This document shows, one piece after another, positions 1-64,000 of a stretch of 64,000 bases of DNA. Positions within the stretch are counted from its first letter, which is position 1. The number at the start of each line of letters is the position of its first letter. A program made the position numbers and the translations under genes. The DNA is from Alphaproteobacteria bacterium (GTDB lineage Bacteria > Pseudomonadota > Alphaproteobacteria > SMXP01), in NCBI GenBank assembly GCA_965248815.1, contig CBDFKK010000008.1:3061290-3125289 (forward strand), in the 5' to 3' direction. The notes below the pieces were generated by a model. The model had not been told where the DNA came from and made no database searches. It saw only the letters and a program-made list of their open reading frames with translations.

Positions 1-383
1 CTCTGATCGTACCAAAGCTCGAAAAGCCGGATTGCATGGGGCGCATCGATGTTGCTGACGACTTGTGAGTCGCCCACGACTTCCGCGCTCAACTCTTGGC
101 CATTGTTGTAAAGGCCGTAGGCGAAGAACGTACCGCCGGGCAAGCTAAATGCTTCTTCTGTATCGATTTCGAGCTGAAGATCGAGATTGTCGAGATAGCG
201 ATGATCCTTTTGGATGCCGCCTTTCGTATTCTGCCAAATCTCACCGGTATAGATGACATCAAGCGACACGCCAGGAATACAGCGAAGTAGCACTTCACAG
301 TCCTCGCCTTGCGCCAGGCTCGCGCTCGTCGACAGCCCTATCGCCGCTGCGCCGACCGCAAGACAGCTCCACAATTTGCTCAA
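1..383 (-). CDS. OprB-family carbohydrate-selective porin, N-terminal part; the gene continues beyond the window start
   Basis: Reverse-strand translation gives a signal peptide (SKLWSCLAVGAAAIGLSTSASLAQ) followed by DVIYTGEIWQNTKGGIQ...GTFFAYGLYNNG, which is typical of the OprB porin N-terminus. The putative TTG start is at 383-381. The plus-strand ORF 253-468 overlapping it has no recognisable motifs. Confidence 0.55.
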   Translation of the reverse strand, partial: MSKLWSCLAVGAAAIGLSTSASLAQGEDCEVLLRCIPGVSLDVIYTGEIWQNTKGGIQKDHRYLDNLDLQLEIDTEEAFSLPGGTFFAYGLYNNGQELSAEVVGDSQVVSNIDAPHAIRLFELWYDQ

Positions 384-464
384 CTTAGATTTCCCCCGCC
401 CCGCTAAGATCCTGTTGCAAGTTAGAATTAACAAGATTTTGGATTTAGACCAACCCCTTTCGGC

Positions 465-785
465 TTAGGGACTGCTCGCCGACTTCATTGAAGATCGCAC
501 AATGCGCCGCAATCGCTGGGGTTTGGAGCCTGGCACCCGCTCGATCATGCCCCGCGCCTCAAGATCCAACTTGACGCAAACCGTGTACCAATTTACCGAC
601 CCTTCGATGTGTTTTGGCAACACGCGCTTCACCGCCTTGGGCAATTCATTAAACGTAATGCCGTCTTTAGATTTTGGCACGACTTTGAGAATAGCCTTCT
701 TGTAGGCATCATATTTTGTCTTGGAAATGCGCGTACCGCCCGAGCCTTCGATGGGACTCCGAGTCTGAATTTTCTCCTCGGCCAT
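465..785 (-). CDS. conserved hypothetical protein (106 aa, basic)
   Basis: ORF with ATG start and TAA stop. It lies 4 bp downstream of the enoyl-CoA hydratase gene on the same strand. No recognisable catalytic motif. Confidence 0.4.
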   Translation of the reverse strand: MAEEKIQTRSPIEGSGGTRISKTKYDAYKKAILKVVPKSKDGITFNELPKAVKRVLPKHIEGSVNWYTVCVKLDLEARGMIERVPGSKPQRLRRIVRSSMKSASSP

Positions 786-788
786 TTT

Positions 789-1640
789 TTAGATGTCTTT
801 TCTTAACGGACCCAAATCTTCAAAGTATGGTGCGCGTTTCTGACCTTGGGCCCCGGCTGCTTCCATAATGTCACGGGGCTCGAACATCCCCGCCTGCCAG
901 GTCGCGATATGATCCAAGGCGTCGGCAATCGAATGGTCGCGCGCATAGTTGATCATTCTTTTTGACCCCGCGACCGCCAGAGGTGACTTCGCGGCAATCT
1001 CCGACGCGGTCGCCACGACCGCTTCCATCATTGCGTCGTGATCGGCATAAACTTCATTGACCAAACCAATAGACTTTGCGGTTTGCGCGTCCAGCCGGCG
1101 GCCCGTATAGGCGAGCTCGCGCACCCAACCTTGCGGGATCAAATGACATAGGCGAGGAAACGTTCCTACGTCCGCCGTCATACCGATGTTAATTTCTTGA
1201 ATGCAAAAGAACGCTTCGTCGGTGCAGTAGCGCAGGTCGCAGGCGGATACCAAGTCATCGCCGGCGCCAATGCAGCCACCTTGAACAGCAGCGATCACCG
1301 GCATGCGCGCATCGTCAAGACAATTGAATGTTTCTTGAAGATGAAGAACCAAGGTTCGAAATGCGTCGCGATCCCTTGCGCTGGCCGCATCTCCCGTTCC
1401 AGCCAGGCGCCCTATTAATTCGTTTTGCGAAAAAATATTGAGATCAATGCCCGCCGTAAAATGTTTGCCAAGCGATGAAATCACAATAACGCGCGCCTCA
1501 CCGCGTTCATCAATTTGTCGAACGGCTGTTGGCAATTCATCCCAGAATTCTCGGATCATTGTGTTGAAGACGTCCGGGCGGTTGAACTTCAGATGAGCGA
1601 TACTGTCGGCGATTGTGAGATCGAAGCAGTTGTAGGTCAT
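789..1640 (-). CDS. enoyl-CoA hydratase/isomerase (crotonase) family protein
   Basis: 283-aa ORF with crotonase-fold motifs (ISSLGKHFTAGIDL, AAVQGGCIGAGDDL). Confidence 0.8.
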   Translation of the reverse strand: MTYNCFDLTIADSIAHLKFNRPDVFNTMIREFWDELPTAVRQIDERGEARVIVISSLGKHFTAGIDLNIFSQNELIGRLAGTGDAASARDRDAFRTLVLHLQETFNCLDDARMPVIAAVQGGCIGAGDDLVSACDLRYCTDEAFFCIQEINIGMTADVGTFPRLCHLIPQGWVRELAYTGRRLDAQTAKSIGLVNEVYADHDAMMEAVVATASEIAAKSPLAVAGSKRMINYARDHSIADALDHIATWQAGMFEPRDIMEAAGAQGQKRAPYFEDLGPLRKDI

Positions 1641-1822
1641 AGCAGGCCTCTAAGATGGTGGAAGCCCTAGCAATAGCACGACAGGAGCAACGCCCAAACC
1701 CGACCCGATAGTGTGGCATCAGGCGCACAGCACGAAGCTTTAGCGCCTCCCAATTTCGCCGTTTGGTCGACTCTAGAACGGACGTAACCTATGATTTCAT
1801 CAGGGGTTGGGGAATTTAGTTC

Positions 1823-3046
1823 ATGCAGGAGACGGAACAATCGACTGAGTCGAGTGGCTCTGACGATTCGACGAGTCGCAAGAGGACGTCTCCCCTCAAG
1901 CGCTACGCATGGACGCTGTTGAGCGCGGTGGTGCGCCCGCGACACCTCCTAAAAAAAAACTACGATTCTGCGCTCGTTTTTGGTCCTGTTGTTCTTACGC
2001 TAATCACGCTTCTCGGCGCATCCCTGATTCAAATGGCACTCTGGCAAGAGGATCCGCTAGTTGCGGCGTTCGAATTTCCCGAGGGTCTCCTTTGGCCTGG
2101 CAAAACGATTAGTGACCTAAGAAGCGAGTTGGCGTTCCTACCGATTACGCCGATTATTCTAGTCGGCGTTATCATATCCGGTTCGATCCCGCTTTATTTT
2201 CTGCTCCGTTCATTCGCCAGTGAGAAATTATCGTTCTTCTCTTTCTTACGTGCTTATGTCTATTCGCAGATCATCATTGCTAATATCGGCATTGCGCTGC
2301 TTGCCGTGCGAATGGTTTCAAGCCACGAAGAGTTCAGACTCTTTGTCCTCGTCACAATATTAGCACTCAGCCTTATCATTGCTTTCGTTTACATCATCCC
2401 AGAATTTAGACGGCTTACTCAGGCCAATTTTATTGTCATCGCTGTCATTTACTTCACCTACAACTCAGTATTCACTTGGATAGTTGAACAGATTGTCCCA
2501 ATTAGGCCATTTAGCATTGAGCAAACTTCCATGCTGCCCAATTTGCATCCAGATGACATCGTTGCGGTGAATCGTTGGGCGTATTTATGGCGCAAACCAG
2601 CTCGAGGCGAGATCATGATTTTTCGCAAACCCGACGAGCCCGATCTATTCTGGGTAAAGCGGGTCGTCGGTTTGCCGGGCGAACGCGTCGCATTGAAAAA
2701 CGGCCTGGTCTACATCAACGAAGAAGTTGCAGACTATACACGCATTGAAGATTTTGTATTTGAGAACCGCGACGGCGAACGAATAAGAGCTGCGCAATAC
2801 ATTGAGATGTTACCTAACAATGCGCGCCACACGGTACTCGATCGTTTTACGAACGGGCGCGGTGACAACACCGTTACATTTGAAGTACCACCGGATCACT
2901 ATTTTGTTCTAGGAGATTACAGGGACAACAGTACCGATAGCCGCTTTTCACCCGGCTTCATTCCTGAAGACAAATTAGTCGGACCGGTATATTCCCGCAT
3001 ATTTCCGATTCGCCGGAAGACTTTCTTTCAACCTTCTCAAAGTTAA
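1823..3046 (+). CDS. lepB: signal peptidase I (S26 family) fused to an extended polytopic N-terminal membrane domain
   Basis: The C-terminal 170 aa carry SPase I boxes: SMLPNL (catalytic Ser), VKRVVGLPGE (catalytic Lys) and GDYRDNSTDSRF. The N-terminal ~230 aa are acidic then multi-helix hydrophobic. Local GC is visibly lower than the flanks. Confidence 0.7.
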   Translation: MQETEQSTESSGSDDSTSRKRTSPLKRYAWTLLSAVVRPRHLLKKNYDSALVFGPVVLTLITLLGASLIQMALWQEDPLVAAFEFPEGLLWPGKTISDLRSELAFLPITPIILVGVIISGSIPLYFLLRSFASEKLSFFSFLRAYVYSQIIIANIGIALLAVRMVSSHEEFRLFVLVTILALSLIIAFVYIIPEFRRLTQANFIVIAVIYFTYNSVFTWIVEQIVPIRPFSIEQTSMLPNLHPDDIVAVNRWAYLWRKPARGEIMIFRKPDEPDLFWVKRVVGLPGERVALKNGLVYINEEVADYTRIEDFVFENRDGERIRAAQYIEMLPNNARHTVLDRFTNGRGDNTVTFEVPPDHYFVLGDYRDNSTDSRFSPGFIPEDKLVGPVYSRIFPIRRKTFFQPSQS

Positions 3047-3232
3047 CGCCGACCGCGATCACCTGCCGCAGCGCATGTGCAACTTGTCGCATGCGTACAC
3101 GAGTCGCACCAGCGCGCACACGATGTCGCATCGACAAAAACTCGTCATCTTCCTACATCAAGGCCAAGCGTCCCGGGCAGTCTGTCGTTTCGTTCGGCAA
3201 GGCTAGGGCGCGTGAACGATGCGAGACGGACG

Positions 3233-3631
3233 ATGATTAAAGTTGCAACCAAATTTTTCAAAAAGTTGAAAGACACCCTCCCTAGCATGGCGACCATGGG
3301 GATAGATTTCGTTGCATATTTTCCGGCGTCCGAAAGCGACGGTCTGGAGGCCAAGAAGGCCTATTTACGTCACTATGTGAGTGAGCGTGGCAACGTCATT
3401 GCTGAATTCGAAGACTCCGTCGACCGTGTGCAAGGAGAACGGCCCGGGCTGCAGATGGCCAAAAACCTTTGCACCAGCCAAGGGGCAACCCTGATTATCG
3501 TCAAGCTCGACCGCGCCGGACGGGGCTCGGTACTCCTATTTGCGCCGCCCACTGAAGCATCCGCGCAAGCCCGCCGGGTCCGTGGCACATCTCGTTCCTT
3601 CGGTGTACCTCAGCTGTCCGCTGTGAGCTAG
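3233..3631 (+). pseudogene. serine recombinase (resolvase/invertase) catalytic-domain remnant; no HTH domain, catalytic Arg replaced
   Basis: GIDFVAYFPASESDG...ERPGLQMAKNL...ATLIIVKLDRAGRGS aligns to the resolvase N-domain (YxRVSTxxQ ... RPxL ... VxKLDRLGRS). The motif Arg is Pro here. The ORF ends after ~130 aa with no DNA-binding domain. Confidence 0.4.
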
Positions 3632-3734
3632 TAGCCGTCGAATTTCTGAATTCGAGGGCCCGCTGCCAGCTATGTCACCGTCGCCTTCTCACCTATGATC
3701 CCTCCGGCCGACAACGGGCGCGGAGCAAATTTTC

Positions 3735-4946
3735 TTGCAATCACAACTCACAGTCTTTGTTTGTGCCCTGGCGATCTTTGTCAATAATGGCTTCATTCTG
3801 GTCGGCCTAACGGCTTTTGACGTTTTCCTCTTGGACGAACTATCGGTGTCCGTCGCCGCTTTGAAGGCACGAGACGGCATTACATTATGGACCGTGGGAA
3901 TCGTAGCGCCGCTCGGCGGCTATATGGCCGACCGGTGGGGCGTGAAACCACTTTTTACATTCAGCCTGATCGTGCTTGCACTTTGCATGTATTTGTATTC
4001 ACTCGTCACTGACATCGTCCATGTCTACGCCATTCACGTAATGTTGGGGTTGGCGCAAGTCTTCGGGGGCTGGGTGGTTGCGCTGCTGCTCGTATCACGG
4101 TGGACGACGACCTATCGTGGCCTGGCGATCGGCACTGTGTTGGCGGGCTCAAGCTTGGGAAATGCATTATTGTCGCTCATCAACATCGAATTGCTCACAC
4201 ATGTCGATTGGCGTACGGCTTTCACGATCATCGCTTTAGTGCCGATCGTGCTCATTCCCGCCATCTTGTTTTTGCTTCGGGAGCAACCTGAAACCACGTT
4301 TAGCTCTGCAACTTCATCCGAAAATGCGATTCCGCCGAGCCATGACGGCGTTACGTTTCGCGACGCCATGCGCTCACCACAACTTTGGATGCTCGGGCTG
4401 ATCGCTACAGTGACGACATTCTCGGCATTGGGCGTCGCCACAAACGCCGTTCTATTTGGCACGACAGACTTAGGCCTATCGTTCGCCGCTGCTGGGCGAT
4501 TGGCTTTTGCGTTCTTTGTCGGATCTTTGTTTTCGCAGGTGGGGGGCGGCCTCCTTGCGGACCGGATTGGCGGTGAGCGCGTCTTAATCGCGTCAGTCGC
4601 CCTCATGGGCGTGGGCTGCTTCAGCTTCGCCAATACGGGGCCAGGGAGCGCGATTTATGTATCGTTTCTATTCGGTCTTGGTTGGGGCGGCACAATCGCC
4701 ATGATTCAATTTGTCGCCTCAGTCCGTTTCTTCGGCGCGGCGCTTGGGCGCATTCTCGCCATTCTCGTATTGCTCGAGACGACAGGCGGCGGCTTGGACC
4801 CCGCAGTGGTCGGCGCGTTTTTCGATCGGTTCGGCAATTACAGCGCTGGCTTCTTGTTAGCCGCCGGACTTTGTCTGGTCTCCCTTGGCACCGCCGTAGT
4901 TATGAGCCTCCTTCGCCAAAAAGGTCCGTCCCGCACGAATTCTTGA
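3735..4946 (+). CDS. MFS transporter
   Basis: 403 aa with about 12 hydrophobic helices. The MFS motif A (GGYMADRWGVKP) follows TM2. Confidence 0.8.
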   Translation: MQSQLTVFVCALAIFVNNGFILVGLTAFDVFLLDELSVSVAALKARDGITLWTVGIVAPLGGYMADRWGVKPLFTFSLIVLALCMYLYSLVTDIVHVYAIHVMLGLAQVFGGWVVALLLVSRWTTTYRGLAIGTVLAGSSLGNALLSLINIELLTHVDWRTAFTIIALVPIVLIPAILFLLREQPETTFSSATSSENAIPPSHDGVTFRDAMRSPQLWMLGLIATVTTFSALGVATNAVLFGTTDLGLSFAAAGRLAFAFFVGSLFSQVGGGLLADRIGGERVLIASVALMGVGCFSFANTGPGSAIYVSFLFGLGWGGTIAMIQFVASVRFFGAALGRILAILVLLETTGGGLDPAVVGAFFDRFGNYSAGFLLAAGLCLVSLGTAVVMSLLRQKGPSRTNS

Positions 4947-5027
4947 TCATCTGCCACTTTGTTTGCTGGCCGTGTATGACTATTTCGAAGAAACTTGCCA
5001 TGACCAATAAAGCCCCAGGAGACTCTC

Positions 5028-5312
5028 ATGCCCAAAGCTCTATTCAACGGCGCCGTCATTGCAGAAACCGATCACTTTGAAGAAGTCGAAGGCAACGTCT
5101 ATTTCCCGCCGGAGTCCGTAAACCGCGATCATGTCAAACCGTCTGAGACCACGAGCGTTTGCCCGTGGAAGGGCACAGCCAGCTACTACACCGTCGAAGT
5201 GAATGGCGAAAAAGCCGAGGACGCGGCCTGGTTCTATCCCGACCCCAAAGAGGCCGCCGCCAATATCAAAGATCATGTCGCCTTTTGGAAAGGCGTCAGC
5301 GTCGAGCGCTAA
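5028..5312 (+). CDS. DUF427 domain protein
   Basis: 94 aa with the CPWKGTASYY signature of DUF427. Confidence 0.7.
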   Translation: MPKALFNGAVIAETDHFEEVEGNVYFPPESVNRDHVKPSETTSVCPWKGTASYYTVEVNGEKAEDAAWFYPDPKEAAANIKDHVAFWKGVSVER

Positions 5313-5425
5313 GACGGCTATCGAAGTCCCTGCCCCAAAGAAGTCACAATAGCGCCCAAGGCCGGGCGCAATCGAAGCCTAGCGTCCTGTCCCAGGTTCA
5401 CCACAACTTGGGAGAGGAAGACCAA

Positions 5426-7216
5426 ATGTCAGTCAAGGGAGTAGACGTGACACCAGCCCCGCAACGCTCAGCGATGTGGGGCTTTATGACATCTGTAGCC
5501 GCGAGCGCGCTGTTATTTACGGCGGCCTGCACCGACAACGGCACACAGACGGGCGAAAAAGATGACGAGCGCGGCCGGACGCAAACTTCGCAAACAACAA
5601 GCGAAGAGAAGTTGATGGTCGATCTGCAGCCACCTCCCGCCAGGGAGTTAGAGGCAGACGGATCGGTGGCATTTAACGCTCCTATGTCCGGTCTTGCCTA
5701 TGATATGGCCGCTTCGGAGCCCCAAATGATGCCGCAGCCGATGCCTGGCGATATCGACCGGGACCGGTTCGAAGACTTTGAAGACAATCCTGTAAAAGTC
5801 GTGACGGAAGATCCCATTTCGACGTTTAGTGTCGACGTCGACACCGCGTCATATTCCGTCATGCGGCGACACTTGAATGACGGCGCACTTCCCGCGCGCG
5901 ACGCCATTCGGGTCGAGGAGCTGGTCAACTATTTCGACTATGACTATGAGCTCCCCGACTCGCGGACCGAGCCTTTCAAGACCAATGCGTTCCTCTATCA
6001 AACACCATGGAACGAGGGCACGCAGCTCCTCCACGTTGGCATCAAAGGTTTCGACGTCATTCCCGAAAACAAGCCCGACAGCAATCTTGTACTCTTGCTC
6101 GACGTGTCCGGCTCCATGGACTCCCCTGACAAATTGCCCTTGCTGAAAAAAGCCATGGGCATGTTGGTCAACGAAATGGACGCGGATGATACCGTCTCCA
6201 TTGTCGTTTATGCGGGCGCTGCAGGCACCGTGCTCGAGCCCACCAAAGGTTCGGACAAGGCCAAGATCATGGCCTCTCTCGACCGCTTGTCCGCCGGCGG
6301 ATCGACAGCTGGTGGTGAAGGCATTCGCCAAGCCTATGCCCTGGCCGAACAAAACTTCAAACAAGACACGGTCAATCGCGTGATCCTCGCGACCGACGGC
6401 GACTTCAATGTCGGGATCAACGACCCGGAGCGTCTGGAAGATTTCATTTCCGAAAAGCGCGACACCGGCGTGTTCTTGACGGTGCTAGGTTTCGGCCGCG
6501 GCAACTACAACGATGTGCTGATGCAAAAACTTGCCCAATCGGGCAACGGCAACGCCGCCTACATCGACTCGGTCAAGGAAGCCCAAAAAGTGTTGGTCGA
6601 TGAAATGTCGAGCACGCTCTTCCCCATTGCCAAGGACGTTAAAATCCAGGTCGAGTTTAATCCGGCTCAGGTCGCCGAATACAGGCTGATCGGCTACGAG
6701 ACCCGGATCCTCAACCGGGAAGACTTTAATAACGATCAAGTGGACGCCGGCGATATCGGCAGTGGTCATAGCGTCACGGCGATCTATGAAATCGTGCCGA
6801 CCGGCAGCGACGCCGGTTGGACCGAGCCATTGCGCTACGGCGGTGAGGCCACCGGCACGATGAGCGAAGACAAAAGTGGTGAAATCGCCTTTGTCCGTGT
6901 GCGCTAAAAGCTGCCCGATGAAGACGAAAGCAATCTCATCGAGACGGCGGTGATGCCCGAAGATGCCATCAACAGCATCGTTGAGGCACCGCAAGACGTT
7001 CAATTCGCAGCGGCGGTGGCGGCCTTCGGCCAAAAGCTCCGCGGCGGCAAATATCTCAACGATTGGGATTTTGATGCCATTGGCAATCTCGCCCAAAGCG
7101 CCAAGGGCGACGACCAATTTGGCTACCGGGCGGAGTTCACCCAGCTGGTGAGGTTGGCCAGGTCATCGTCCACCATGCCATCGCTCGAAATAAGCGAGGG
7201 CACGGTCACCCAATAA
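5426..7216 (+). pseudogene. YfbK-like von Willebrand factor A (VWA + DUF3520) protein interrupted by an in-frame TAA at 6905-6907
   Basis: RBS GGAGAGGAAG precedes the ATG at 5426. It has a signal peptide, the MIDAS motif LLLDVSGSMD and TDGDFNVG. The reading frame continues past the TAA (VRVR*KLPDEDESNLIETAVMPED...) for 103 more codons in the same frame (ORF 6950-7216). Confidence 0.6.
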
Positions 7217-7247
7217 CCCGTTCAAGGGAGGGGAACTGTATGAGTAG

Positions 7248-7280
7248 GCGGCGGGCTTCGGCCCGCCGCTTTTCCTTTGG
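7248..7280 (+). terminator. Rho-independent terminator downstream of the YfbK-like gene
   Basis: A 9-bp GC stem (GCGGCGGGC / GCCCGCCGC) with a TTCG loop, followed by TTTTCCTTT. Confidence 0.7.
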
Positions 7281-7440
7281 CGATCGCTACTTGATAAAAA
7301 GTGGAATCGAAAGCGCTGCAAGCACCAATATAACCAGCAGGATGGTATCCATTTGCCGTCCCTTCCTTTGCTACACGCCCCAAGTCTGGCGCCCTGCCGC
7401 CCTAGGGGCAAGCATAGGTCTGCTGCCCGTTAACAACTTG

Positions 7441-7530
7441 TCTCGTCATGATAACCTTAAACTATAAAAAGACTAATTATGATACTAGTCATATTTTATT
7501 ATATGATATATATCATAATTAGTTCGATTC
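7441..7530 (+). promoter_or_regulatory. AT-rich promoter/operator region with a perfect 16-bp palindrome (TATGATATATATCATA, 7501-7516) and repeated ATGATA half-sites; upstream of the TetR-TlpA-BNR operon
   Basis: A sharp AT-rich island in a high-GC context. The palindrome was verified by reverse-complementing it. It lies 43 bp upstream of the TetR start. Confidence 0.45.
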
Positions 7531-7558
7531 GGTCGTTTTTGGCTCTCCTAGGCGCATT

Positions 7559-8122
7559 GTGAGCTACACCCCCGCCCACAAAGAACGCACCCGTGCCCGC
7601 ATACTTGAGAGCGCTAGGCGCCTCCTGAAGGATCAAGGGCTCGCCGGCGTGAGCGTCGATGGCCTTATGGCCGAAGCTGGTCTCACACGAGGCGGCTTCT
7701 ACGCTCATTTCAAGTCCAAGGACGATTTGGTCGCGGCGGCGCTTGAGGATCCGGTTCTTGTAGGATTTTTGACCAAACACGAGGGCGAGCGGGAGCCGGC
7801 GCACTGGACCCGACTCGTCCTGGAGGAATATCTGGGATCCCTTCACCGCGACCGGCCGGGGACCGGCTGCCCCCTCGCCGCCTTTATTGGCGAGGCCTCC
7901 CACGCGGCCTCCGAAGTACAGGCCGCTTACGCCGCTCAAGTCAAACAAGCTGCAACGACCATATCCGCTCGCTTGCCCGGCAAGCCGAAAGAAACAGAAA
8001 AGGAAGCTCTGGGCATTTTGGCGCTGGTGATCGGCGGTGCAGCCCTTGCCCGGGCGGTCGATGACAAAGTGCTCTCGGATGCTATTCTAGCCGCCTGCCG
8101 CGAGGCGATTTCAGATTTATAG
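7559..8122 (+). CDS. TetR/AcrR family transcriptional regulator
   Basis: N-terminal HTH (RILESARRLLKDQGLAGVSVDGLMAEAGLTRGGFYAHFKSKDDLV). GTG start. Confidence 0.85.
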   Translation: MSYTPAHKERTRARILESARRLLKDQGLAGVSVDGLMAEAGLTRGGFYAHFKSKDDLVAAALEDPVLVGFLTKHEGEREPAHWTRLVLEEYLGSLHRDRPGTGCPLAAFIGEASHAASEVQAAYAAQVKQAATTISARLPGKPKETEKEALGILALVIGGAALARAVDDKVLSDAILAACREAISDL

Positions 8123-8130
8123 GGCCGCTC

Positions 8131-8676
8131 ATGAAAATTTTCAGCCAAACCTACATGTTGCTGGTGGTCACGCTGCTGGTCGCCGTGCCCATCGCAGACG
8201 CTAGAGCACAAGACAACGATCAAGAAATCGGTATCTTGGACCCAGGAATGGCCGAAGAAGGAGGAGCGGCCCCCGACTTCCGCCTCAAAGATTTGAATAT
8301 GAACTTGGTCCAACTCTCCCAGTTCCTCGGAACTCCAATCGTGCTCAACTTTTTCGCTTCTTGGTGCGGCCCCTGCATTATCGAGATGCCCTACATCCAA
8401 GCCGCGCATGATCAGGCTGCGGACAATGGCTATGTTGTCTTAGGTGTTGCCGTCGAAGACAGCCGGGGGGCCATCGAAGACATGATGGCAGGTGGAAGCT
8501 TTACTTATCCTGCTGTGATCGATGGCGACAGCAGCGTAAAGCTCGCATACCAGGTCGTCGGTCCGCCCTACACGTTTTTTATCGACCGGGACGGCATAAT
8601 CCAAACTGTGGTATCGGGCTCCCTTGAGCCGGAAACACTGGATTTGGAAATAGCTCAGTTACTCGAAACGGAGTAG
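8131..8676 (+). CDS. TlpA/ResA-like periplasmic thiol:disulfide oxidoreductase (thioredoxin fold)
   Basis: Signal peptide plus a WCGPC active site, with overall TlpA-like architecture. Confidence 0.8.
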   Translation: MKIFSQTYMLLVVTLLVAVPIADARAQDNDQEIGILDPGMAEEGGAAPDFRLKDLNMNLVQLSQFLGTPIVLNFFASWCGPCIIEMPYIQAAHDQAADNGYVVLGVAVEDSRGAIEDMMAGGSFTYPAVIDGDSSVKLAYQVVGPPYTFFIDRDGIIQTVVSGSLEPETLDLEIAQLLETE

Positions 8677-8711
8677 ACTAGGGCCAATCACAGCTTTGAA
8701 GGAGGTTTCCC

Positions 8712-10109
8712 ATGATCCGATCACTGACAGTAGCTACGCTATTGGCAGCAACATCGTTGAGTTGGTCGAGCGCACCTCAAGCTGAAGAGGTGTCAAAGGA
8801 TCCAATAGCTTTTGCCGATATCGTCAGCATCGGGACGATCGATAAGAATCCGGCAGACCAATATTTGCAGGCTACTCCTGACGGCGACGTGTTGATGACC
8901 TGGACGGAAGACGCCGAGGGCAAGCGCGCGCGTAACGCGTTCATTGCAACGGTTGACAGCCAGGGTGGTCTGGGCGATGCGCGTCAAATCAATGACGTGC
9001 CCGGTTCGGTACATTGGTACGGCGGCGACAATAGGCTGAAATATACAGTCGCGCCCGATGGTGGCATTACAGCTGTATATGCTTCTCCTCTTGACGGCTT
9101 CAAAACCGGCGTTGTGCTCACAACCCATGCCACGCCGAACGGCGAGTTCGAAGCTTCAAAGTGGCTCAACGACGACGACAATGATCCGCCAGTGGCCCAC
9201 GCGTTTGCTACGGTTGCCGCAAGCCCGGACGGTAAGATCTATGCAACATGGATCGACGGGCGCAATCGAACGTTCCTCGGCATGGGCGAGCCCGAGTCTA
9301 CCGCTGAAAAGCGCAAAGACATCAAGATGCGTGATCTCACTATTCCTGAATCGGTTATGCAGATGGGCCCGCGAGCGACGCGCAAATTTGCCGAAGAGAA
9401 TTCGCAGCTCTACATGGCCGTATCGGAGGATAGCGGGAAATCTTTCAGCACGAATTATCCGATTACAAATATTCAAGTCTGCGCTTGCTGCGTGCCCACC
9501 GTTTCGTTCCTCGATGATGGCGGCACGGTGATCGTGTCCTATCGCGAAGTCGGTGAGGGTTATCTACGAGATAATGTCGTGATCCGCTCGACCGACGGCG
9601 GCAAGACGTTCTCGACGCCCACATTCATTAGCGAAGACGGCTGGATTGCAAAGTTTTGTCCCCACGCCGGATCGTCAGTGATTGCCGCACAAAATGACCG
9701 GTTACAAAGCGTTTGGTTCACCGCCGGCAAGAAGGGCGAAGATGACGCGGGCATCTACTACACATATTCCGATGATGCCGGTGAAAGCTTTGCACCGCGC
9801 CAGCTTTTGGACCGCACGCCGGCACACACCGTTCTTCATGCTCAGGTCGTGGAAGATGAAAGCGGGAGGCTTTGGGCCGTTTGGGAAAACTTCCTCGAAG
9901 GCGATCAACGAAGACCTCAGATCTTCATGGCCCATCGTGCACCCGACGCGACGGAGTGGAGCGAAAAGTATCTTCTCAGCGAAGGCGGCGAGACCTCGAT
10001 GCTTCCCTCCTTGGCAACCGACGGCACGAATGTGTATGTCGCCTGGACGGAAAAGAAAGGCGAGACATCTACAGTGAAGTTGCGCACAGCGTCACTCGTC
10101 GGCAGCTAA
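8712..10109 (+). CDS. secreted BNR/Asp-box repeat protein (sialidase-like beta-propeller)
   Basis: Signal peptide and repeated S-x-D-x-G-K-[ST]-F-S motifs (SEDSGKSFS, STDGGKTFS). Confidence 0.65.
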   Translation: MIRSLTVATLLAATSLSWSSAPQAEEVSKDPIAFADIVSIGTIDKNPADQYLQATPDGDVLMTWTEDAEGKRARNAFIATVDSQGGLGDARQINDVPGSVHWYGGDNRLKYTVAPDGGITAVYASPLDGFKTGVVLTTHATPNGEFEASKWLNDDDNDPPVAHAFATVAASPDGKIYATWIDGRNRTFLGMGEPESTAEKRKDIKMRDLTIPESVMQMGPRATRKFAEENSQLYMAVSEDSGKSFSTNYPITNIQVCACCVPTVSFLDDGGTVIVSYREVGEGYLRDNVVIRSTDGGKTFSTPTFISEDGWIAKFCPHAGSSVIAAQNDRLQSVWFTAGKKGEDDAGIYYTYSDDAGESFAPRQLLDRTPAHTVLHAQVVEDESGRLWAVWENFLEGDQRRPQIFMAHRAPDATEWSEKYLLSEGGETSMLPSLATDGTNVYVAWTEKKGETSTVKLRTASLVGS

Positions 10110-10126
10110 CGTTCGACGTTCTCGGA

Positions 10127-11119
10127 CTAACCTAATTGCACAATCTCTTGCAGGCCGCCGCTGGCAGGGTTGCGCACAATGAAGCTTTGCCCATCTCCCA
10201 GGCCGGGCACGGAGATGTCCATCACTTCGGAATAGATTTGGCAATCGAGTTCCTTTGACGCACTTAAGGCCTTTGCGAGATCGTCAACGACACACTGCTG
10301 GGCGATGTAGCCAATATTTGGCGCGACAGCTACATCGGTCAGATCGATGCAGTCATAGTTGATGGGTTCCGACAGCGCGACTTTGCCGAACATGTGGTTG
10401 CCCTGAAGAAAGCGGATACGCGTGCGCGCATTTTCCGGCAAGCCCAAAAACTCGTTGGTGTCCGGCGTGGCGAGTTCATCGTCGAACATGACTCCCATGC
10501 CGAGCACGCGCTCATAAAAATCGGTTGCCGTTTTTAGATCTTTGACAATGTGCGCCGTCGTCACGACCGGTAAAAAGCCTTTTCCATTATGGCCGACAGA
10601 ATCCATGTAGGCGCGCATATCGCCGATCGTCGTTCCCGGATCACCTATTGCCAATTCAACCAAATTAATCGGCACGGAGTCATATCCGCTAAGCACGACC
10701 TCCGTCGGCGCACCGACGCTCGACTTCAAGTCATAATGCTTGGGTTCGGACCACGATTTACAGCCGTTTTCACCCAGGTATTTCGACGCCTTTTGTATGT
10801 CGGGCGTATAAAAATTCACGTTGCACAAGCCGAATGCCAAGAAACTGTGGACGGTCCAAATCTCCCTGCGATTGGCTGCGTTAAACTCCATCAAATAAAT
10901 GCGCCCAACATCAAGTCCGTTACTTTCCAACATCGCAACCTGAGCTTCGCTGCCAACCGGCAGGTGCCAATGTTTTTCGAAGGCTGAGCCTTTCATTGTG
11001 CCGCTTCCGATGATTTCGAAACCGACCACGTCTTTGTAAAAGCCAATTGACGCTTTGAGATCGCGGGCGCCTATGACGACAGCGGCTACGGGCGAACCGG
11101 ACGGCAAATTCTGGGACAT
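10127..11119 (-). CDS. two-domain VOC (glyoxalase/bleomycin-resistance/extradiol dioxygenase) family protein
   Basis: 330 aa with two betaalphabetabetabeta modules (VVIGARDLKASIGFYKDVVGFEI... and a second repeat). Confidence 0.7.
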   Translation of the reverse strand: MSQNLPSGSPVAAVVIGARDLKASIGFYKDVVGFEIIGSGTMKGSAFEKHWHLPVGSEAQVAMLESNGLDVGRIYLMEFNAANRREIWTVHSFLAFGLCNVNFYTPDIQKASKYLGENGCKSWSEPKHYDLKSSVGAPTEVVLSGYDSVPINLVELAIGDPGTTIGDMRAYMDSVGHNGKGFLPVVTTAHIVKDLKTATDFYERVLGMGVMFDDELATPDTNEFLGLPENARTRIRFLQGNHMFGKVALSEPINYDCIDLTDVAVAPNIGYIAQQCVVDDLAKALSASKELDCQIYSEVMDISVPGLGDGQSFIVRNPASGGLQEIVQLG

Positions 11120-11266
11120 TGGGATTCCTATATTTGTATCGCGAGAATAGGTTCAGGCAAGACCGTCATCTTAACAGGCACGCACGCGTCATACACGATC
11201 AAACTGAGGCTCTTGTCTTAACAAAAGAGATCTGCGATCAAACAGATCTCTGGTCGAGGAAACAAA

Positions 11267-12181
11267 ATGACGGCACCATTGGTTGAAACTTGTCGCGGCT
11301 TCGTCAACACGTGGGAATGCGATGAAAACGATCATTAAAATGTGCAGTTCTATTTTGCCAAAAAAAGTGAAGCCGACGCTCACTTCCGGCTTCACCTCGG
11401 TTTGCTGCCAGCCGATCGGACCGAGGACAAAACGCATGTGCGCGTTAGCCAAGATCATGTGCGCTTTCACGCCGAGCTGCGCGCCGCCGACACGTTTGCG
11501 ATAACGACAGGCATCGTCGGGATTGATGACACGACACTTAGTGTCTTTCACACCATGACCAAAAGCAACGGCGAGCTTGCGGCGACTATGGTCACGACCT
11601 GGGAGCACGTCGACGCTGATTCCGGCGCGCCGGCAATTTGGCCGGATGATGTCAAAGAACAAGCCGCACGCCGTCACGTCGATCTTCCTGATAACGCTCT
11701 GTGGCGCTCGGCGGACAGACGCGCGCCCTTTCCAGATATCAAACTTGACGAAGCCGAAATCCAAAATGCTCTCACGGTATATCGAGGACTCGTACACCCG
11801 GCAGAGTGCGACGGGCTAGGGCATATGACGCCGCGCTTCCACATTTCGCGCACGTCGGATGGGGCTGCTCATTTTTGGAATGCGTTCGGCTTCTATAGCG
11901 GCGATCTTCAAGAGCAAAATCGCGGGTCGGTCGTGCTCGAATACTTGCTCACCTATTGCCGTCCGTTTAAAGCCGGCGATCCCATTGAAGTTAAGTCGTT
12001 CATTCGATCCGTCGGCTCTAAGACGATTAGCTTTACGCACTTGCTATTTGATCGGAAGACCGGCCGATTGAACGCCATTGCCGATCCAACCGCCGTGCTG
12101 TTTGATCAGACAACGCGCAAAGCCATCGAACTCAGCACGGAGGAACGCGCGCGCTTCGAGCCCGGCATCCGACAGATTTGA
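11267..12181 (+). pseudogene. hotdog-fold acyl-CoA thioesterase (4HBT-like, double hotdog) interrupted by an in-frame TAA at 11336-11338
   Basis: RBS GAGGA precedes the ATG at 11267. The 23 codons MTAPLVETCRGFVNTWECDENDH contain the 4HBT catalytic D..GH motif, then TAA, then the same frame continues as NVQFYFAKK... (ORF 11342-12181, GTG start). The full motif expected is D..GH-x-NN..Y. Confidence 0.55.
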
Positions 12182-12190
12182 GTTCAAGGA

Positions 12191-12763
12191 TTGCTAATGA
12201 CTTCCAATGCTGAACAGCAATTTGCGGTAGAAGTTCTCGACTTCTTGCCCGATGAGGAAGTGGAACGCTTTTACTTTCCTGGCCCAAGCAAAGCCGGTGG
12301 CCACGATGGTGTGATCGTAAAACTCACCGGAGAAAATGAACGGCAATGGGTCGGCGTTTTTGCATTCGGAAATTATCCAAATACGGTATCGCGCTTTTGC
12401 GGTACGGTCTTAGGGCCAGAGAACGTCGTGATCATTGCCGAGGGACAAGGTTACTTCGTTTCCGCAAACAATCCAGAAAAGTACGGAGAAGTTGATTGCT
12501 TTCCCATTTTTGGAGTTCACCAATCTGCAAAGCACTCGATAATTTGCTTTCACGATCATGGCAGGTTTGTCGGATACGGTCGAAAAGGTCTAGCATGGAC
12601 AGCAGTACCTATCAGCACCGATGAAATTAAAGTTCATGCGGCAAGTGAAGATGAAATTGAAGGCCGTGCTTGGAGTGATTCCAAACAGCAATTCGTTGGA
12701 TTTGGAATTAATATCAAAGACGGAAAAACATCGATCAGCCATAAGTTCTTGATGGATGAATAG
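12191..12763 (+). CDS. hypothetical protein; lower-GC orphan ORF
   Basis: 190-aa ORF with GC clearly below the flanks. No recognisable motifs. Confidence 0.45.
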   Translation: MLMTSNAEQQFAVEVLDFLPDEEVERFYFPGPSKAGGHDGVIVKLTGENERQWVGVFAFGNYPNTVSRFCGTVLGPENVVIIAEGQGYFVSANNPEKYGEVDCFPIFGVHQSAKHSIICFHDHGRFVGYGRKGLAWTAVPISTDEIKVHAASEDEIEGRAWSDSKQQFVGFGINIKDGKTSISHKFLMDE

Positions 12764-12802
12764 TGAGGTCTTCATTACTCGCATAGGTCGTGAAGTTCTC
12801 GA

Positions 12803-13339
12803 TCAATCAAAACCTTCGCAGCACAAGCGGTAGACTTCCATCATGTGACGCACGTCTTGCGCAGCGCGGTGCGTGTGAGGCTCGTTTGTGTCGGCGATAA
12901 ATTCTGAACGCGCAATATCACGGGGCGATGAAATTGATTTGAGTAGAATTTGCAAGTCAGACAACTCGAACGTGGGCGAACGTTCGGCAGCGTCATAGAG
13001 CACGGTCAGCCAGAAACCGTCGTACGACGGTGCGTCGCTGTAAACGGTGGCACCAATGAGCTCGCCATCAAGTACGTCGCAAACCTCGCCGACCTCGTGC
13101 CCCTCGGCTTGCAGACAATCGATGGTGAACCCATGCATGCGCTCGGCGACGGGATTCCATTCAGCAAGCGCCCAAGCGTCGTGCGGTTTAATCAGCAGAG
13201 AGTGCGCCTCCTCGCCCGAGCGTGCCCATCCGATTTCAACCGGCCAGGAGCCCGGACCGAGGCCAGACGCTTCAAAATCGAGAAAGGCGATAGATCGGTC
13301 CATGGGTCCGCAACCTAACTGGCCCGGCCTCACAAGCAA
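12803..13339 (-). CDS. stand-alone DEDDh 3'-5' exonuclease (DnaQ/epsilon-like domain)
   Basis: Exo I motif FLDFEASGL, Exo II YSDAPSYD and Exo III HRAAQDVRH. The true start may be the Met at 13303. Confidence 0.7.
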   Translation of the reverse strand: MLVRPGQLGCGPMDRSIAFLDFEASGLGPGSWPVEIGWARSGEEAHSLLIKPHDAWALAEWNPVAERMHGFTIDCLQAEGHEVGEVCDVLDGELIGATVYSDAPSYDGFWLTVLYDAAERSPTFELSDLQILLKSISSPRDIARSEFIADTNEPHTHRAAQDVRHMMEVYRLCCEGFD

Positions 13340-13511
13340 GGTCGCCTCAAAACCGGGACTGATGGGGCTCCAATCTCGCTAGTTCGCTTCACCCAAAGCG
13401 CTCAAATTCTATCTATCGACGGAAACACCGGTAAAAACGCTCATAGAACCATATTTTCTTGATTATCTCTATTAATACTATTATTATCCATAACATATTT
13501 GGAGTTTGGTC

Positions 13512-13952
13512 GTGCGGGACTTTCGGACCATAGAAATCGATCTCGAAATCCACAAAGCCATCGAGGCCGAGCGGGCTGACTTTGCCGAACTCCCCAATGA
13601 CATCTTGAGGCGGCTCTTGGGACTAGGGCCCGCGCCACATGCGCGAAAATTGAATGACGTCGTCGAATTTGGCGGTCCAGGCGCGTGGAGCGGCAAGGGC
13701 GCGACGCTCGCCGCAGGCACCACGCTGCGCATGAGTTACAACGGCGAAAGCCACGAAGCCGTCATCGAGGACGGAAGGTGGCTCATCAACGGTCAAAAAT
13801 TCTCAAGCCCATCGGGCGCGGCATCGGCCCTCGCGCGCACGCGCGAGGGTAACAGCGTCAATTTGGACGGCTGGGAATATTGGTACTATTGCGTTCCGGG
13901 TACGGATGAATGGCGGCCATTGAAAGACCTAAAAAGAATTCGTCTTGCCTAG
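13512..13952 (+). CDS. hypothetical protein with a DUF4357/RAMA-like C-terminal domain
   Basis: C-terminal GQKFSSPSGAASALARTREGNSVNLDGWEYW resembles the DUF4357 signature (F.SPSAAA...NGW..W). RBS GGAG sits 7 nt upstream of the GTG at 13512. An AT-rich promoter region lies upstream. Confidence 0.45.
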   Translation: MRDFRTIEIDLEIHKAIEAERADFAELPNDILRRLLGLGPAPHARKLNDVVEFGGPGAWSGKGATLAAGTTLRMSYNGESHEAVIEDGRWLINGQKFSSPSGAASALARTREGNSVNLDGWEYWYYCVPGTDEWRPLKDLKRIRLA

Positions 13953-14027
13953 CGGAACGCGAAATTCAAAGCGGCGGAACCAGGAGGAAAAATCTAAGAC
14001 GACAAATTTCAAGCAAGGGAGGACTTT

Positions 14028-14435: not shown

Positions 14436-14572
14436 GGCCGATTCAGATAGCAACCGGGGCTTGGCACGCGGTTTGCACCAGACCAAGGCATTATCCCCGT
14501 GGCGGTTCAAAAAGGCACGATGAGATGATCTCAATCGCGTCGTAGGACCGCAAAAACCGTGGAGAAGGTGTC

Positions 14573-14947: not shown

Positions 14948-15119
14948 TGGCGAGTATACGACGACACGCCTTCGACGCGGCACACTCTCGGACTCGCGAC
15001 CGACGCTTCAAGACCCCTACAAGTTCAAGCCGTCAGGCGCTAGCGCGGACTCTCGCTAACCGGAATGACGCCGAAAGGTTCTACTCCGCGGCGGCTGCAG
15101 ACACCGTCTTCGGATTGAA

Positions 15120-17273: not shown

Positions 17274-17316
17274 TGTTTTCTCCGATCCATCCTCGGATGG
17301 ATGTTTTATTGAATCC

Positions 17317-19729: not shown

Positions 19730-19759
19730 CGCATTTGCACCTTATGGAATTTTTCTGCG

Positions 19760-47466: not shown

Positions 47467-47477
47467 GAAAACTTCCC

Positions 47478-60715: not shown

Positions 60716-60847
60716 GCGCTAACCACGGTTCGCCAAACCAAATGTTGGGAGCTGCGTATAGATTTAAGAGATCTTTATGGATTGACGCCTAAGTTTACTA
60801 TGATGATCTAAAGCGCATACTTGTCATACCTAAGCGAGATTATTGCC

Positions 60848-62782
60848 ATGGAAGTGTTTGACGCTTTTTCGAAATCCTACAGTCGCGAAAAACATGAGAC
60901 GATGAGTCTAAGAGACTATCTCTTGGCTTGCCGCGACGATCCTATGATGTACGCCTCGTCGGCGGAGCGCCTGATCAATGCGATCGGTGAACCGGAATAT
61001 GTTGACACAAGCAAAGATCAACGACTCTCGCGCGTCTTTTTCAATCGTACGATCAAACGTTACAAATCGTTCTCCAATTTCTACGGCATGGAAGATACGA
61101 TTGAGCGGATCGTCGGCTATTTCACCTATGCCGCCCAAGGTTTGGAAGAGCGACGTCAAATTCTGTATCTCTTGGGGCCCGTCGGCGGCGGCAAGTCTTC
61201 GCTTGCGGAACGCTTGAAGGAGTTGATGGAAGTCAACCCGATCTATGCACTCAAAGCAGGCGATCAAATCAGTCCCGTTTTTGAATCCCCCCTCGGGCTT
61301 TTCCGCTCGGAGGAAATGGAAGACTTGCTTGAAGAAAAATATGGCATCGAACGGCGGCGACTAATCGGCATAATGTCACCGTGGGCCTTCAAGCGATTGG
61401 ACGAATTCAATGGTGACATTTCCAAATTTGAAGTCGTCCGGCTTTATCCCTCAAAGCTCCGCCAAATCGGAATTTGCAAGACCGAACCGGGCGATGAAAA
61501 CAACCAAGACATTTCCGCCCTTGTCGGTAAAGTCGACATCAGAAAGTTAGAGCACTACAGCCAAGATGATCCCGACGTATATAGTTTCTCCGGCGGCTTG
61601 TGCCGTGCCAACCAAGGCCTTCTCGAATTTGTCGAGATGTTCAAGGCACCCATCAAAGTGTTGCATCCGTTGCTCACGGCCACCCAAGAAAGCAACTATA
61701 TAGGTACTGAAGCTCTTGGACCGATCCCATTCCAAGGACTCGTGCTCGCGCACTCCAACGAATCTGAGTGGCAGCTCTTCAAGAACAATAAGAACAACGA
61801 AGCGTTCTTGGATCGCATTTCAGTCATCAAGGTGCCTTACTGTCTCCGGGCGACCGAAGAGTCCGCGATCTACCACAAGCTGTTGAAGGGGAGCGAGCTT
61901 GGCAACGCGACATGCGCGCCCGAGACATTGGAAATGTTGGCGCGCTTTTCAGTCATGACGCGTCTCAAGGAGCATGAAAACTCAGGTCTGTTTTCCAAGA
62001 TGCGTGTCTACGATGGTGACAAGCTCAAAGATACGGACCCCAAGGCCAAATCCGTTCAAGAGTATCGGGACGCGGCCGGTGTCGATGAAGGAATGAATGG
62101 AATCAGCACCAGATTTGCATTCAAAGTTCTGTCTGCGACGTTTAACTACGATACCGAGGAACTGGCCGCCGATCCTGTACATCTTATGTACATTCTTGAA
62201 CAAGCGATCCGCCGCGAACAATTTCCGGAAGAGATTGAAAAGCGCTATTTGGACTTTATAAAGTCCGAGCTCAGCCAGCGCTATGCAGAATTCATAGGAA
62301 ATGAGATTCAAAAGGCCTATCTCGAGTCCTATGGTGAATACGGCCAAAACTTGTTTGATCGCTACATCTCATATGCCGACGCTTGGATCGAGGATCAAGA
62401 TCACAAAGATTCGGACACCGGCCAGCTCCTCGACCGACAAGCGATTGATGCGGAATTGTCCAAAATTGAAAAGCCCGCTGGTATTGCGAACCCCAAAGAT
62501 TTCCGAAATGAGGTGGTTAAGTTTGCTCTTAGAGCTCGCGCCGACAATAGCGGCACAAATCCACCGTGGACATCCTATGAAAAGCTCCGCAACGTCATTG
62601 AAAAACGCATGTTCAGCCAAGTTGAAGATCTGCTACCGGTGATCAGTTTCGAATCCAAGAAAGACAGCAATACTGAACAGAAACACAAGGAGTTCGTCGA
62701 AAGGATGTTGTCCCGGAAGTACACTGAACGGCAGGTCCGACGTCTTGTCGAGTGGTACATGCGTGTCGATAAGGCAGGCTAA
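60848..62782 (+). CDS. prkA: PrkA family serine protein kinase
   Basis: Walker A GPVGGGKSS and strong overall PrkA/YeaG pattern. Start at MEVFDAF, analogous to the YeaG N-terminus. Confidence 0.85.
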   Translation: MEVFDAFSKSYSREKHETMSLRDYLLACRDDPMMYASSAERLINAIGEPEYVDTSKDQRLSRVFFNRTIKRYKSFSNFYGMEDTIERIVGYFTYAAQGLEERRQILYLLGPVGGGKSSLAERLKELMEVNPIYALKAGDQISPVFESPLGLFRSEEMEDLLEEKYGIERRRLIGIMSPWAFKRLDEFNGDISKFEVVRLYPSKLRQIGICKTEPGDENNQDISALVGKVDIRKLEHYSQDDPDVYSFSGGLCRANQGLLEFVEMFKAPIKVLHPLLTATQESNYIGTEALGPIPFQGLVLAHSNESEWQLFKNNKNNEAFLDRISVIKVPYCLRATEESAIYHKLLKGSELGNATCAPETLEMLARFSVMTRLKEHENSGLFSKMRVYDGDKLKDTDPKAKSVQEYRDAAGVDEGMNGISTRFAFKVLSATFNYDTEELAADPVHLMYILEQAIRREQFPEEIEKRYLDFIKSELSQRYAEFIGNEIQKAYLESYGEYGQNLFDRYISYADAWIEDQDHKDSDTGQLLDRQAIDAELSKIEKPAGIANPKDFRNEVVKFALRARADNSGTNPPWTSYEKLRNVIEKRMFSQVEDLLPVISFESKKDSNTEQKHKEFVERMLSRKYTERQVRRLVEWYMRVDKAG

Positions 62783-62841
62783 AGGCCGAATTCGGCGCAC
62801 GCGAGAACGGTCCGAGTAGGCGTCATGAGAATGGCTTTTGA

Positions 62842-64000
62842 ATGACCTATTTCATCGATCGACGCCTTAATCCGAAAGGAAAGAGTATCGGTAACCGGCA
62901 GCGGTTTATTAAGCGTGCGCGGGCGCAAATTAAAGAAGCTGTTCAGAAGTCGTTGAAGGACCGCACCGTTTCGGATTTCGAAAGCGAACAAGAAATCACA
63001 ATTCCTACCAAAGGAACCGAGGAACCACGGTTTCGCTTATCCAGTTCAGGCGGTACCCGAGATGGCATTCATCCCGGCAACAAAGAATTCGTCGAAGGCG
63101 ACGAGATTAAAAAGAAGCGTTCTGGCAGCGGCAACGGATCGGGCAAAGAAGCCAGCGATAGCGGTGAAGGCGAGGACAGCTTCCAATTTACGCTAACGCA
63201 AGAAGAAATCCTCGACCTCTTTTTTGAGGACCTCGAACTGCCCAACCTCGTCAAAACGTCCCTAAAGGAAATCAAGCGAACTAAATATAAGCGCGCTGGC
63301 CTTACAACCGGAGGCACACCAAACAATATCAACTTGTTGCGGACCATGCGCAATTCCTATGGCCGGCGTATTGCGCTGAAACGCCCTAGCAGCGGAGATG
63401 TTGCATTGCTTCGAGATGAATTATTCATGCTGGAGCGAAAAGCTGAGCCGTCACCGAAGGAGAACGCCCGCAAACAACAGCTTATCGAACAAATTGCGCG
63501 CCTAGAAGCCAAACGACGAGGCGTTCCCTACATCGATCCGATCGATGTCCGCTACAATGCCTTTGAGCCCACACCCATTCAGACCAGCCAAGCCGTCATG
63601 TTCTGTCTCATGGACGTGTCGGGCTCCATGGGCGAACGCGAGAAAGATCTAGCAAAGAGATTCTACATTCTTTTGCACCTCTTTCTCAAAAGACGATATG
63701 AAAAAGTCGATATCGTCTTTATCCGGCATACACATGAAGCGCAAGAAGTCGATGAACAAACTTTTTTCTACAGTCGGCAGAGCGGAGGTACAATCGTCAG
63801 CACGGCTCTAGAAGAAATGTTGACCATCACAGAAGATAGATACGTTACCAGCGATTGGAATATCTACGTCGCGCAAGCCTCCGACGGTTACACGCAATCG
63901 GGCGACGCCCAATACTGTGTCGATCTGTTGATCGAAAAAATCATGCCGATCAGCCAGTATTATGCCTATATCGAGATTCTAGATGAGCGGGAAAAGGAAG
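62842..64000 (+). CDS. yeaH: YeaH/YhbH (DUF444, UPF0229) protein, 3'-partial at the window end
   Basis: MTYFIDRRLNPKGKSIGNRQRF N-terminus and the VWA-like MIDAS DVSGSMG. The ORF has no stop inside the window, so it is absent from the ORF track. Confidence 0.8.
   Translation, partial: MTYFIDRRLNPKGKSIGNRQRFIKRARAQIKEAVQKSLKDRTVSDFESEQEITIPTKGTEEPRFRLSSSGGTRDGIHPGNKEFVEGDEIKKKRSGSGNGSGKEASDSGEGEDSFQFTLTQEEILDLFFEDLELPNLVKTSLKEIKRTKYKRAGLTTGGTPNNINLLRTMRNSYGRRIALKRPSSGDVALLRDELFMLERKAEPSPKENARKQQLIEQIARLEAKRRGVPYIDPIDVRYNAFEPTPIQTSQAVMFCLMDVSGSMGEREKDLAKRFYILLHLFLKRRYEKVDIVFIRHTHEAQEVDEQTFFYSRQSGGTIVSTALEEMLTITEDRYVTSDWNIYVAQASDGYTQSGDAQYCVDLLIEKIMPISQYYAYIEILDEREKE

Follow-up and report, generated by a model that had tools for sequence, protein, structure and literature searches.

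The question raised by this stretch of alphaproteobacterial DNA (64,000 nucleotides of contig CBDFKK010000008.1; the whole stretch is called the window below) is why genes that are intact elsewhere are interrupted in it so often. The initial annotation had listed an 11-bp duplication in a PodJ-like gene, two homopolymer frameshifts in a TonB-dependent receptor gene, in-frame TAA codons in a YfbK-like gene and, after the catalytic motif, in a thioesterase gene, a gene split by an IS3 element, a fusion of PPOX and alpha/beta-hydrolase remnants, and a resolvase remnant. Every one of these lesions is present in the sequence. Our analysis suggests that they probably reflect pseudogenisation of an ordinary and mostly recent kind, which has struck dispensable genes for envelope and accessory functions while the lineage loses DNA. 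Five young pseudogenes (PodJ-like, receptor, YfbK-like, thioesterase, and anchored YbjN) would each have been inactivated by one or two lesions through separate everyday routes: an IS3 transposition, a slippage duplication, transversions that turned two Tyr codons into TAA, and single-base insertions or deletions (indels) within runs of G. The PPOX/hydrolase deletion scar and the truncated resolvase would be older debris. None of this looks like a new mechanism, and nothing lies outside known biology.

Window genes were analyzed by translating long open reading frames (ORFs) and scanning them against Pfam and NCBIfam. Relatives were found with the Alph_Pro_TM protein in a genome scan of species representatives, among which the window itself had no copy, followed by protein look-ups. 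The protein is 80% identical to its counterpart in L001 (OZ243948.1, a 2.79-Mb chromosome) and 62% identical to that in L002. The other relatives are L016, a Logan contig; L017, assembled from short reads of the L001 species; and L018, a long-read assembly of that species that was compared with L017. In a tree built from orthologue identities, L001 and L016 form the sister group of the window genome, and L002 is the outgroup. All five young pseudogenes show homology over their whole length to intact genes elsewhere, with the lesion inside the conserved region, and repair of the lesions gives products of orthologue size, as in the receptor (700 versus 700 amino acids (aa)).

The PodJ-like polarity-factor gene (23131-25676, forward strand) is frameshifted by an 11-bp tandem duplication. 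A repeat search located CCGAGCCTGAA in exact tandem at 24287-24297 and 24298-24308, within a Pro/Glu-rich linker, and the N-terminal frame carrying the duplication ends at a TAA at 24424-24426. Removal of one copy fuses two overlapping ORFs into a single 844-codon ORF over 23131-25676, and an intact 747-aa ORF of L002 matches both halves. The product has an N-terminal coiled-coil part, judged by eye, a transmembrane segment, and Sel1 repeats detected with Pfam; the hydrophobic segment FLFAFFLTMTLGAVFLL is present in the repaired product. The Pfam and NCBIfam scans of the product gave no PG_binding match for the C-terminal peptidoglycan-binding domain of PodJ. “PodJ-like” is used here as a label, resting on the predicted architecture rather than on an alignment to Caulobacter PodJ.

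The YfbK-like lipoprotein gene (5426-7216, forward strand) encodes vWF_A, VWA, and YfbK_C domains, and this order in the Pfam scan fits YfbK-type VWA proteins. Its in-frame TAA (6905-6907, in the context CGC TAA AAG) falls at position 99 of the YfbK_C profile, which is matched from position 1 to 98 of 184 before the stop and from 100 to 182 after it. Tyr occupies this site in approximately 103 of 114 homologues, all of about 570-600 aa. The called product in the source genome is a 493-aa truncation (P0123).

The double-hotdog (4HBT_2) thioesterase gene (11267-12181, forward strand) is interrupted at codon 24 by a TAA (11336-11338) directly after the WECDENDH motif. The L001 orthologue, a protein of 305 aa that aligns over 11279-12178 with 66% identity, reads TAC (Tyr) at this codon (DENDH-Y-NVQF). 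The natural stop of the gene is the TGA at 12179-12181, and the downstream ORF (12191-12763) is a separate gene. We considered the terminal stop with the downstream same-frame ORF (12182-12763) as a further lesion and rejected this, since the orthologue also ends there.

At both nonsense codons a conserved Tyr has been lost, and the change from TAY-AA to TAA-AA gives the string TAAAA. At the thioesterase site, the change would be C-to-A if the ancestor of the window genome also had TAC, and such a change would fit either oxidative-damage mutagenesis or a context-specific miscall.

These two TAA codons are the only in-frame TAAs within genes of the window, and they bear on whether the interrupted genes might still be expressed by non-standard decoding: through a Tyr-suppressor tRNA acting at UAA, through frameshifting or phase variation of the receptor, or through synthesis of the PodJ-like protein as two polypeptides. 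We regard this explanation as very improbable. That both in-frame TAAs replace Tyr would suit it, as would a GTG at 24432 that could restart the C-terminal part of the PodJ-like gene. However, TAA is the commonest terminator in the window: it closes 20 of the 47 intact ORFs, among them lepB and the enoyl-CoA hydratase gene. For the thiolase, the 227-aa protein, and the 346-aa protein at the least, it falls exactly at the C-terminus of the L001 orthologue. Reassignment of UAA was rejected on terminator usage and orthologue C-termini; the initial annotation had likewise taken TAA as a normal stop and recoding as unlikely, and this judgment stands. In addition, a tRNA scan of the 64-kb window found none, and no split version of any broken gene was seen in the relatives. 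The proposal that the same interruptions might be conserved among relatives as functional split genes thus fails for every gene, as intact homologues were found: the receptor in four relatives (about 700 aa), the thioesterase at 305 aa, more than 100 YfbK proteins, the 747-aa PodJ-like protein of L002, and seven YbjN proteins.

The TonB-dependent receptor gene (31691-33793, reverse strand) carries two single-base indels in G runs. At the first site (32673-32678), G6 (C6 on the forward strand) stands where G7 is expected, indicating a loss of one base; at the second (32446-32449), G4 stands where G3 is expected, indicating a gain of one base. The closest homologues read RDMGGGFVEV at the first site and TKRDQLQ at the second. 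Three-frame translation and tblastn with the intact L001 orthologue identified a stretch of approximately 76 codons (about 32675 to 32450) whose match to the orthologue is confined to the other reading frame, and the uncorrected frame stops at a TAA at 32630-32632. Adding one G at the first site and removing one at the second yields exactly 700 aa, the size of the L001 orthologue. Pfam matched an N-terminal Plug and TonB_dep_Rec_b-barrel, and the repaired product ends in F. The called product in the source genome is a 387-aa truncation (P0003).

The two receptor indels are opposite in sign and 227 nt apart, so that the downstream frame is restored; their pairing may be due to chance or to a local consensus problem. 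We considered whether the second indel arose as a frame-restoring compensation and rejected this, as the wrong-frame TAA lies 15 codons past the first shift. The second indel could not have rescued the receptor because this TAA is inherent to conserved GTA AAA codons. Two indels are expected if the gene was already dead.

Expression of the receptor by frameshifting or phase variation, the second route of non-standard decoding, can be weighed at the same sites. The heptamer at the first shift, G_GGG_GGA, has the formal structure of a -1 slippery site and would yield an orthologue-like MGGTFVEV. In contrast, a +1 event at CGG_G would be required for the second shift, and there is no recognisable signal there. 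We judged programmed frameshifting unlikely on account of this unsupported +1 event and of the lack of both sites in the orthologues. Phase-variable TonB-dependent receptors with poly-G tracts are contingency loci in Neisseria, Haemophilus, and Campylobacter, and the present gene resembles them in being an outer-membrane receptor ORF switched off by a one-base change in a G tract. A contingency locus is defined by a long homopolymeric tract, usually of 7-8 bases or more, that varies among cells or strains. The receptor tract, by contrast, has only 6-7 bases (G6, with G7 inferred), the second shift lies in a G3/G4 run that is also short for such loci, and the tract is not conserved, because the L001 protein reads RDTGRRFF at the first site, which cannot be encoded by a long G run.

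The region directly downstream of the receptor gene (30495-31535, reverse strand) encodes the 346-aa protein, a conserved secreted protein that has no Pfam or NCBIfam match. It occupies the same place in L001, L016, L017, and L018, shows 74-76% identity between the window and the relatives, and is intact here. Possibly it functions together with the receptor.

The fifth young pseudogene is the membrane-anchored YbjN-family gene, which is split by a complete 1289-bp IS3-family element (38391-39679, reverse strand). The 5' part (38235-38390, forward strand), encoding MRLIGYL...FLADWLPEEEA, is cut off by the element, and the 3' part (39680-40165, forward strand), which encodes an acidic linker and a YbjN domain (Pfam YbjN positions 4-125 of 126), lacks its own start codon outside the element. 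When the flanks are joined in frame, they encode 213 aa, and seven homologues of 202-233 aa span the junction with 100% coverage; the N-terminal 48 residues, the anchor, are strongly conserved in these full-length homologues. The element matches rve, HTH_21, HTH_Tnp_1, and the NCBIfam model transpos_IS3. Its orfA (39642-39280) and orfB (39283-38453) are intact, its terminal inverted repeats lie at 38391-38404 and 39665-39678 with one terminal base mismatched, and it matches IS3-family elements on Rhizobium plasmids from end to end at 76%. It resembles other members of the family, in which -1 frameshifting joins the two frames, in the overlap of orfA (HTH) with orfB (DDE, rve) at a slippery site (T_TTT_TTA) and in its terminal inverted repeats. 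A clean target-site duplication, 3-5 bp long in this family, could not be made out for this copy: no exact duplication was found at the flanks (38385-38390 and 39680-39684), where GAAGC versus GAACC is the best match.

The two older remnants are of another kind. In the PPOX-class/alpha/beta-hydrolase fusion (36349-36829, reverse strand), two remnants abut out of frame: the N-terminal half of a PPOX-class gene (36829-36524), matching Pfam PNPOx_N positions 2-50 of 120, and the C-terminal end of an alpha/beta hydrolase (36537-36349), 60-odd residues that match Abhydrolase_1 positions 199-244 of 245. This fusion is a deletion scar. The resolvase (serine recombinase) remnant at 3296-3526, inside the forward-strand ORF 3077-3631, matches Pfam Resolvase positions 13-77 of 145. 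Inspection of the translation showed approximately the first half of the catalytic domain, without the E-helix or the helix-turn-helix (HTH), and identity to plasmid recombinase genes is 32-38% over about 95 aa only.

Comparison with the relatives bears on what happened to these genes. The window genome is a single 3.2-Mb contig, and the sister species have genomes of 2.79 Mb. Positions 10134-57517 of the window are colinear with 1024-20573 of the L001 locus, so that 47 kb correspond to about 20 kb; the same applies to L016, L017, and L018. Four blocks are missing from L001, L016, and L017: MerR-CAP-PodJ; the stretch from DHOR to YbjN, including PPOX; the Lhr/ligase cluster; and the DinG-like helicase. 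Also missing in the closest relatives are an acyl-CoA dehydrogenase, DUF952/TPR, and TerB alongside the DinG-like helicase. The outgroup L002 has kept MerR-CAP-PodJ in the same position, which indicates that the PodJ-like gene was ancestral, was deleted in the sister clade, and was independently frameshifted in the window. Among the homologue matches, none of the YfbK or YbjN proteins came from the 2.79-Mb contig, and on these matches YfbK was probably deleted in the sister clade. The receptor and thioesterase genes are retained intact in the sister genomes, and all other genes shared with L001 or L002 are intact in the window.

What the sequences show is that the lesions are there, that the orthologues are intact, and that the sister genomes lack the PodJ-like and YbjN genes. 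Three things are inferred: the organism itself carries the lesions, the affected genes no longer function, and the losses stem from a relaxation of selection, not from positive selection. Relaxed selection is probable because PodJ and YbjN, and apparently also YfbK, are already gone from the sister species. Selection would thus be relaxed on genes that are mostly associated with the envelope, while DNA is being shed.

The initial annotation had offered systematic homopolymer and point errors in the assembly as one explanation of the lesions. A narrower form of this proposal is that some or all of the four single-base lesions, that is, the two receptor indels and the two TAY-to-TAA changes, are consensus errors; the real lesions would then be limited to the 11-bp duplication, the IS insertion, and the old remnants, and the lesion density would not be unusual. 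We consider this unlikely. Several observations favor it. The receptor indels lie in G/C homopolymers, a classic site of consensus errors, and they are close together and cancel in frame, as in a local low-quality patch. An A4 run (TAAAA) is created by both substitutions; with uniform substitution, two TAAs would both go back to Tyr with a probability of about 0.05, which may point to a miscall specific to this context. The window genome forms one 3.2-Mb contig, and the relative is a long-read metagenome contig. Cooley and Wright (2024, PMC11017572) document how assembly gives rise to spurious pseudogenes: many database pseudogenes are artefactual, and internal stops track assembly quality. 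The present genes resemble such cases in their homopolymer single-base indels and isolated internal stops, both of which are classes that this study ascribes to errors. Two further points weigh against the pseudogenisation reading as such: no conspecific homologue (at least 95% identity) of the receptor, YfbK, or YbjN protein was present in the protein database, and four of the seven lesions (resolvase, PPOX/hydrolase, YbjN, and PodJ-like) lie in DNA that is unaligned to L001, the resolvase lying beyond the end of the L001 locus, where debris would be expected to gather.

Other observations argue against errors as the cause and support real pseudogenisation. Intact ORFs of the window contain 134 homopolymers of at least five bases, including five G/C runs of six, and 381 of four bases, all without a frameshift. 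The only two single-base indels in the window are both in the receptor gene, and an error from G3 to G4 is atypical. Stop-making changes account for 3.7% of random coding substitutions; two nonsense errors would therefore imply approximately 55 substitution errors in the window. The residual errors of long-read assemblies are described as mostly of homopolymer length in the Polypolish paper, and some 55 substitution errors against two indels would be the reverse of such an indel-dominated pattern, which counts against systematic error. A relative’s comparable assembly points the same way: over 22 kb, L017 and L018 are 99.6% identical and differ by 86 substitutions and a single intergenic one-base gap, with no coding indel. 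The gap lies in the spacer that is occupied by MerR-CAP-PodJ in the window and L002. Three of the four affected genes carry one lesion only, and a single lesion is the state of most bacterial pseudogenes (PMC11017572). Finally, the lesions are of five kinds, and the 11-bp duplication, the IS insertion, and the deletion fusion are untypical of consensus errors; this, and the restriction of the indels to one gene, also distinguishes the window from the documented spurious pseudogenes. Systematic error as first proposed is therefore unlikely.

The other proposal of the initial annotation was that the lesion density is unusual and marks a genome in early reductive decay, through recent host restriction or relaxed selection. 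Disruption affects seven (about 12%) of the approximately 58 loci of the window, and about 50 are intact; the disrupted loci take up about 14% of the window and intact ORFs cover 72%, giving a gene packing of about 86% when pseudogenes are counted. The binomial probability of at least seven disrupted loci is 0.0017 at an assumed background of 3% and 0.025 at 5%, in a window that was picked after the fact. In addition, unaligned flexible DNA tends to collect debris. The excess is therefore suggestive, not established; the count itself stands, and its unusual character is accepted only to that extent.

Genome-wide early reductive evolution after host restriction, of the Sodalis or Shigella type and with at least 10% of genes freshly inactivated, appears quite unlikely. 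It would be consistent with the fraction of disrupted loci, most of them young, and with the mostly envelope and surface genes affected; envelope and surface functions are often shed on host adaptation. The IS3 element is intact and so potentially active, and the sister clade has smaller genomes from which the same genes have gone. The window also resembles niche-restricted bacteria (Sodalis, Shigella, Salmonella Typhi, and Mycobacterium leprae) in its mixed lesions, mostly one to a gene, in the intact state of the genes in relatives, and in the over-representation of surface and uptake functions among the pseudogenes. However, the comparison covers one 64-kb window with one IS copy, the GC content (49-59% across the window) is unremarkable and the gene packing normal, the housekeeping and metabolic genes of the window are all intact, and the four lesions named above have no aligned L001 counterpart or lie beyond its end. 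Literature searched by the accession numbers of the relatives yielded nothing on habitat. A genome of 3.2 Mb beside compact, orderly relatives of 2.79 Mb looks like streamlining, not bottleneck-driven collapse. Thus, in the proposal of early reductive decay, relaxed selection fits the deletions in the sister clade, while host restriction goes beyond the evidence.

Streamlining in free-living or marine alphaproteobacteria offers a further parallel, as the sister genomes collapse the 10-57 kb region to 20 kb with gene order kept and with most of the broken genes absent. The window genome differs from such streamlined genomes in that it still carries the dead genes, and so represents an intermediate pseudogene step.

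A stronger claim would be that the lesions form a real and coherent set marking the start of a lifestyle shift, in which polarity and envelope functions are switched off one by one: the PodJ-like factor, the receptor, the YfbK lipoprotein, and YbjN would be in the process of loss, and the 2.79-Mb sister clade would be the end state. We regard this as quite improbable, and a variant in which a Tyr-inserting ochre suppressor tolerates both Tyr-to-TAA sites as even less likely. If the lifestyle shift were true, the pair of genomes would record the early steps of genome reduction in an uncultured lineage as a natural time series. Under the reading preferred here, recent and ordinary pseudogenisation, the window would be a small, clean example of bacterial gene loss by unrelated routes, with sister genomes in which the deletions are complete, and it would be of use mainly as a pointer to a whole-genome pseudogene census of the lineage. 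If the four single-base lesions were errors, the window would serve as a quality flag for the assembly. Neither outcome would change current understanding.

The remainder of the window belongs to an ordinary alphaproteobacterial chromosome. Its intact genes include fatty-acid oxidation genes (FadB, thiolase, and two acyl-CoA dehydrogenases), PyrD, class-I LysRS, the DinG-like helicase, PrkA, and DUF444, as well as a cluster of Lhr, phosphoesterase, exonuclease, and ATP-ligase genes. No further lesion was found in the other window genes, including all those shared with the relatives. The ORF pair 27781-28563 and 28750-29427, the DUF952/TPR pair, and 46834-47984 were considered as frameshifts and rejected, as all are separate intact genes. 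An Rfam scan of the window gave no match.

The cluster mentioned above is a DNA-repair cluster (40638-46691) encoding a metallophosphoesterase, an Lhr-type helicase (872 aa), a metallo-beta-lactamase-fold exonuclease, and an ATP-dependent DNA ligase, and it is absent at all four related loci (L001, L002, L016, and L017). The segment 12191-15000, which has no L001 counterpart and may be what is left of an island, contains unknown ORFs and encodes a small protein (13506-13952) that combines SeqA_N with RAMA (restriction-enzyme/methylase-associated), a SnoaL-like protein, and a bPH_2 protein. The gene for signal peptidase I (S26; 1823-3046) encodes 407 aa, with an unusual N-terminal extension of about 215 residues that places several hydrophobic segments ahead of the catalytic domain.

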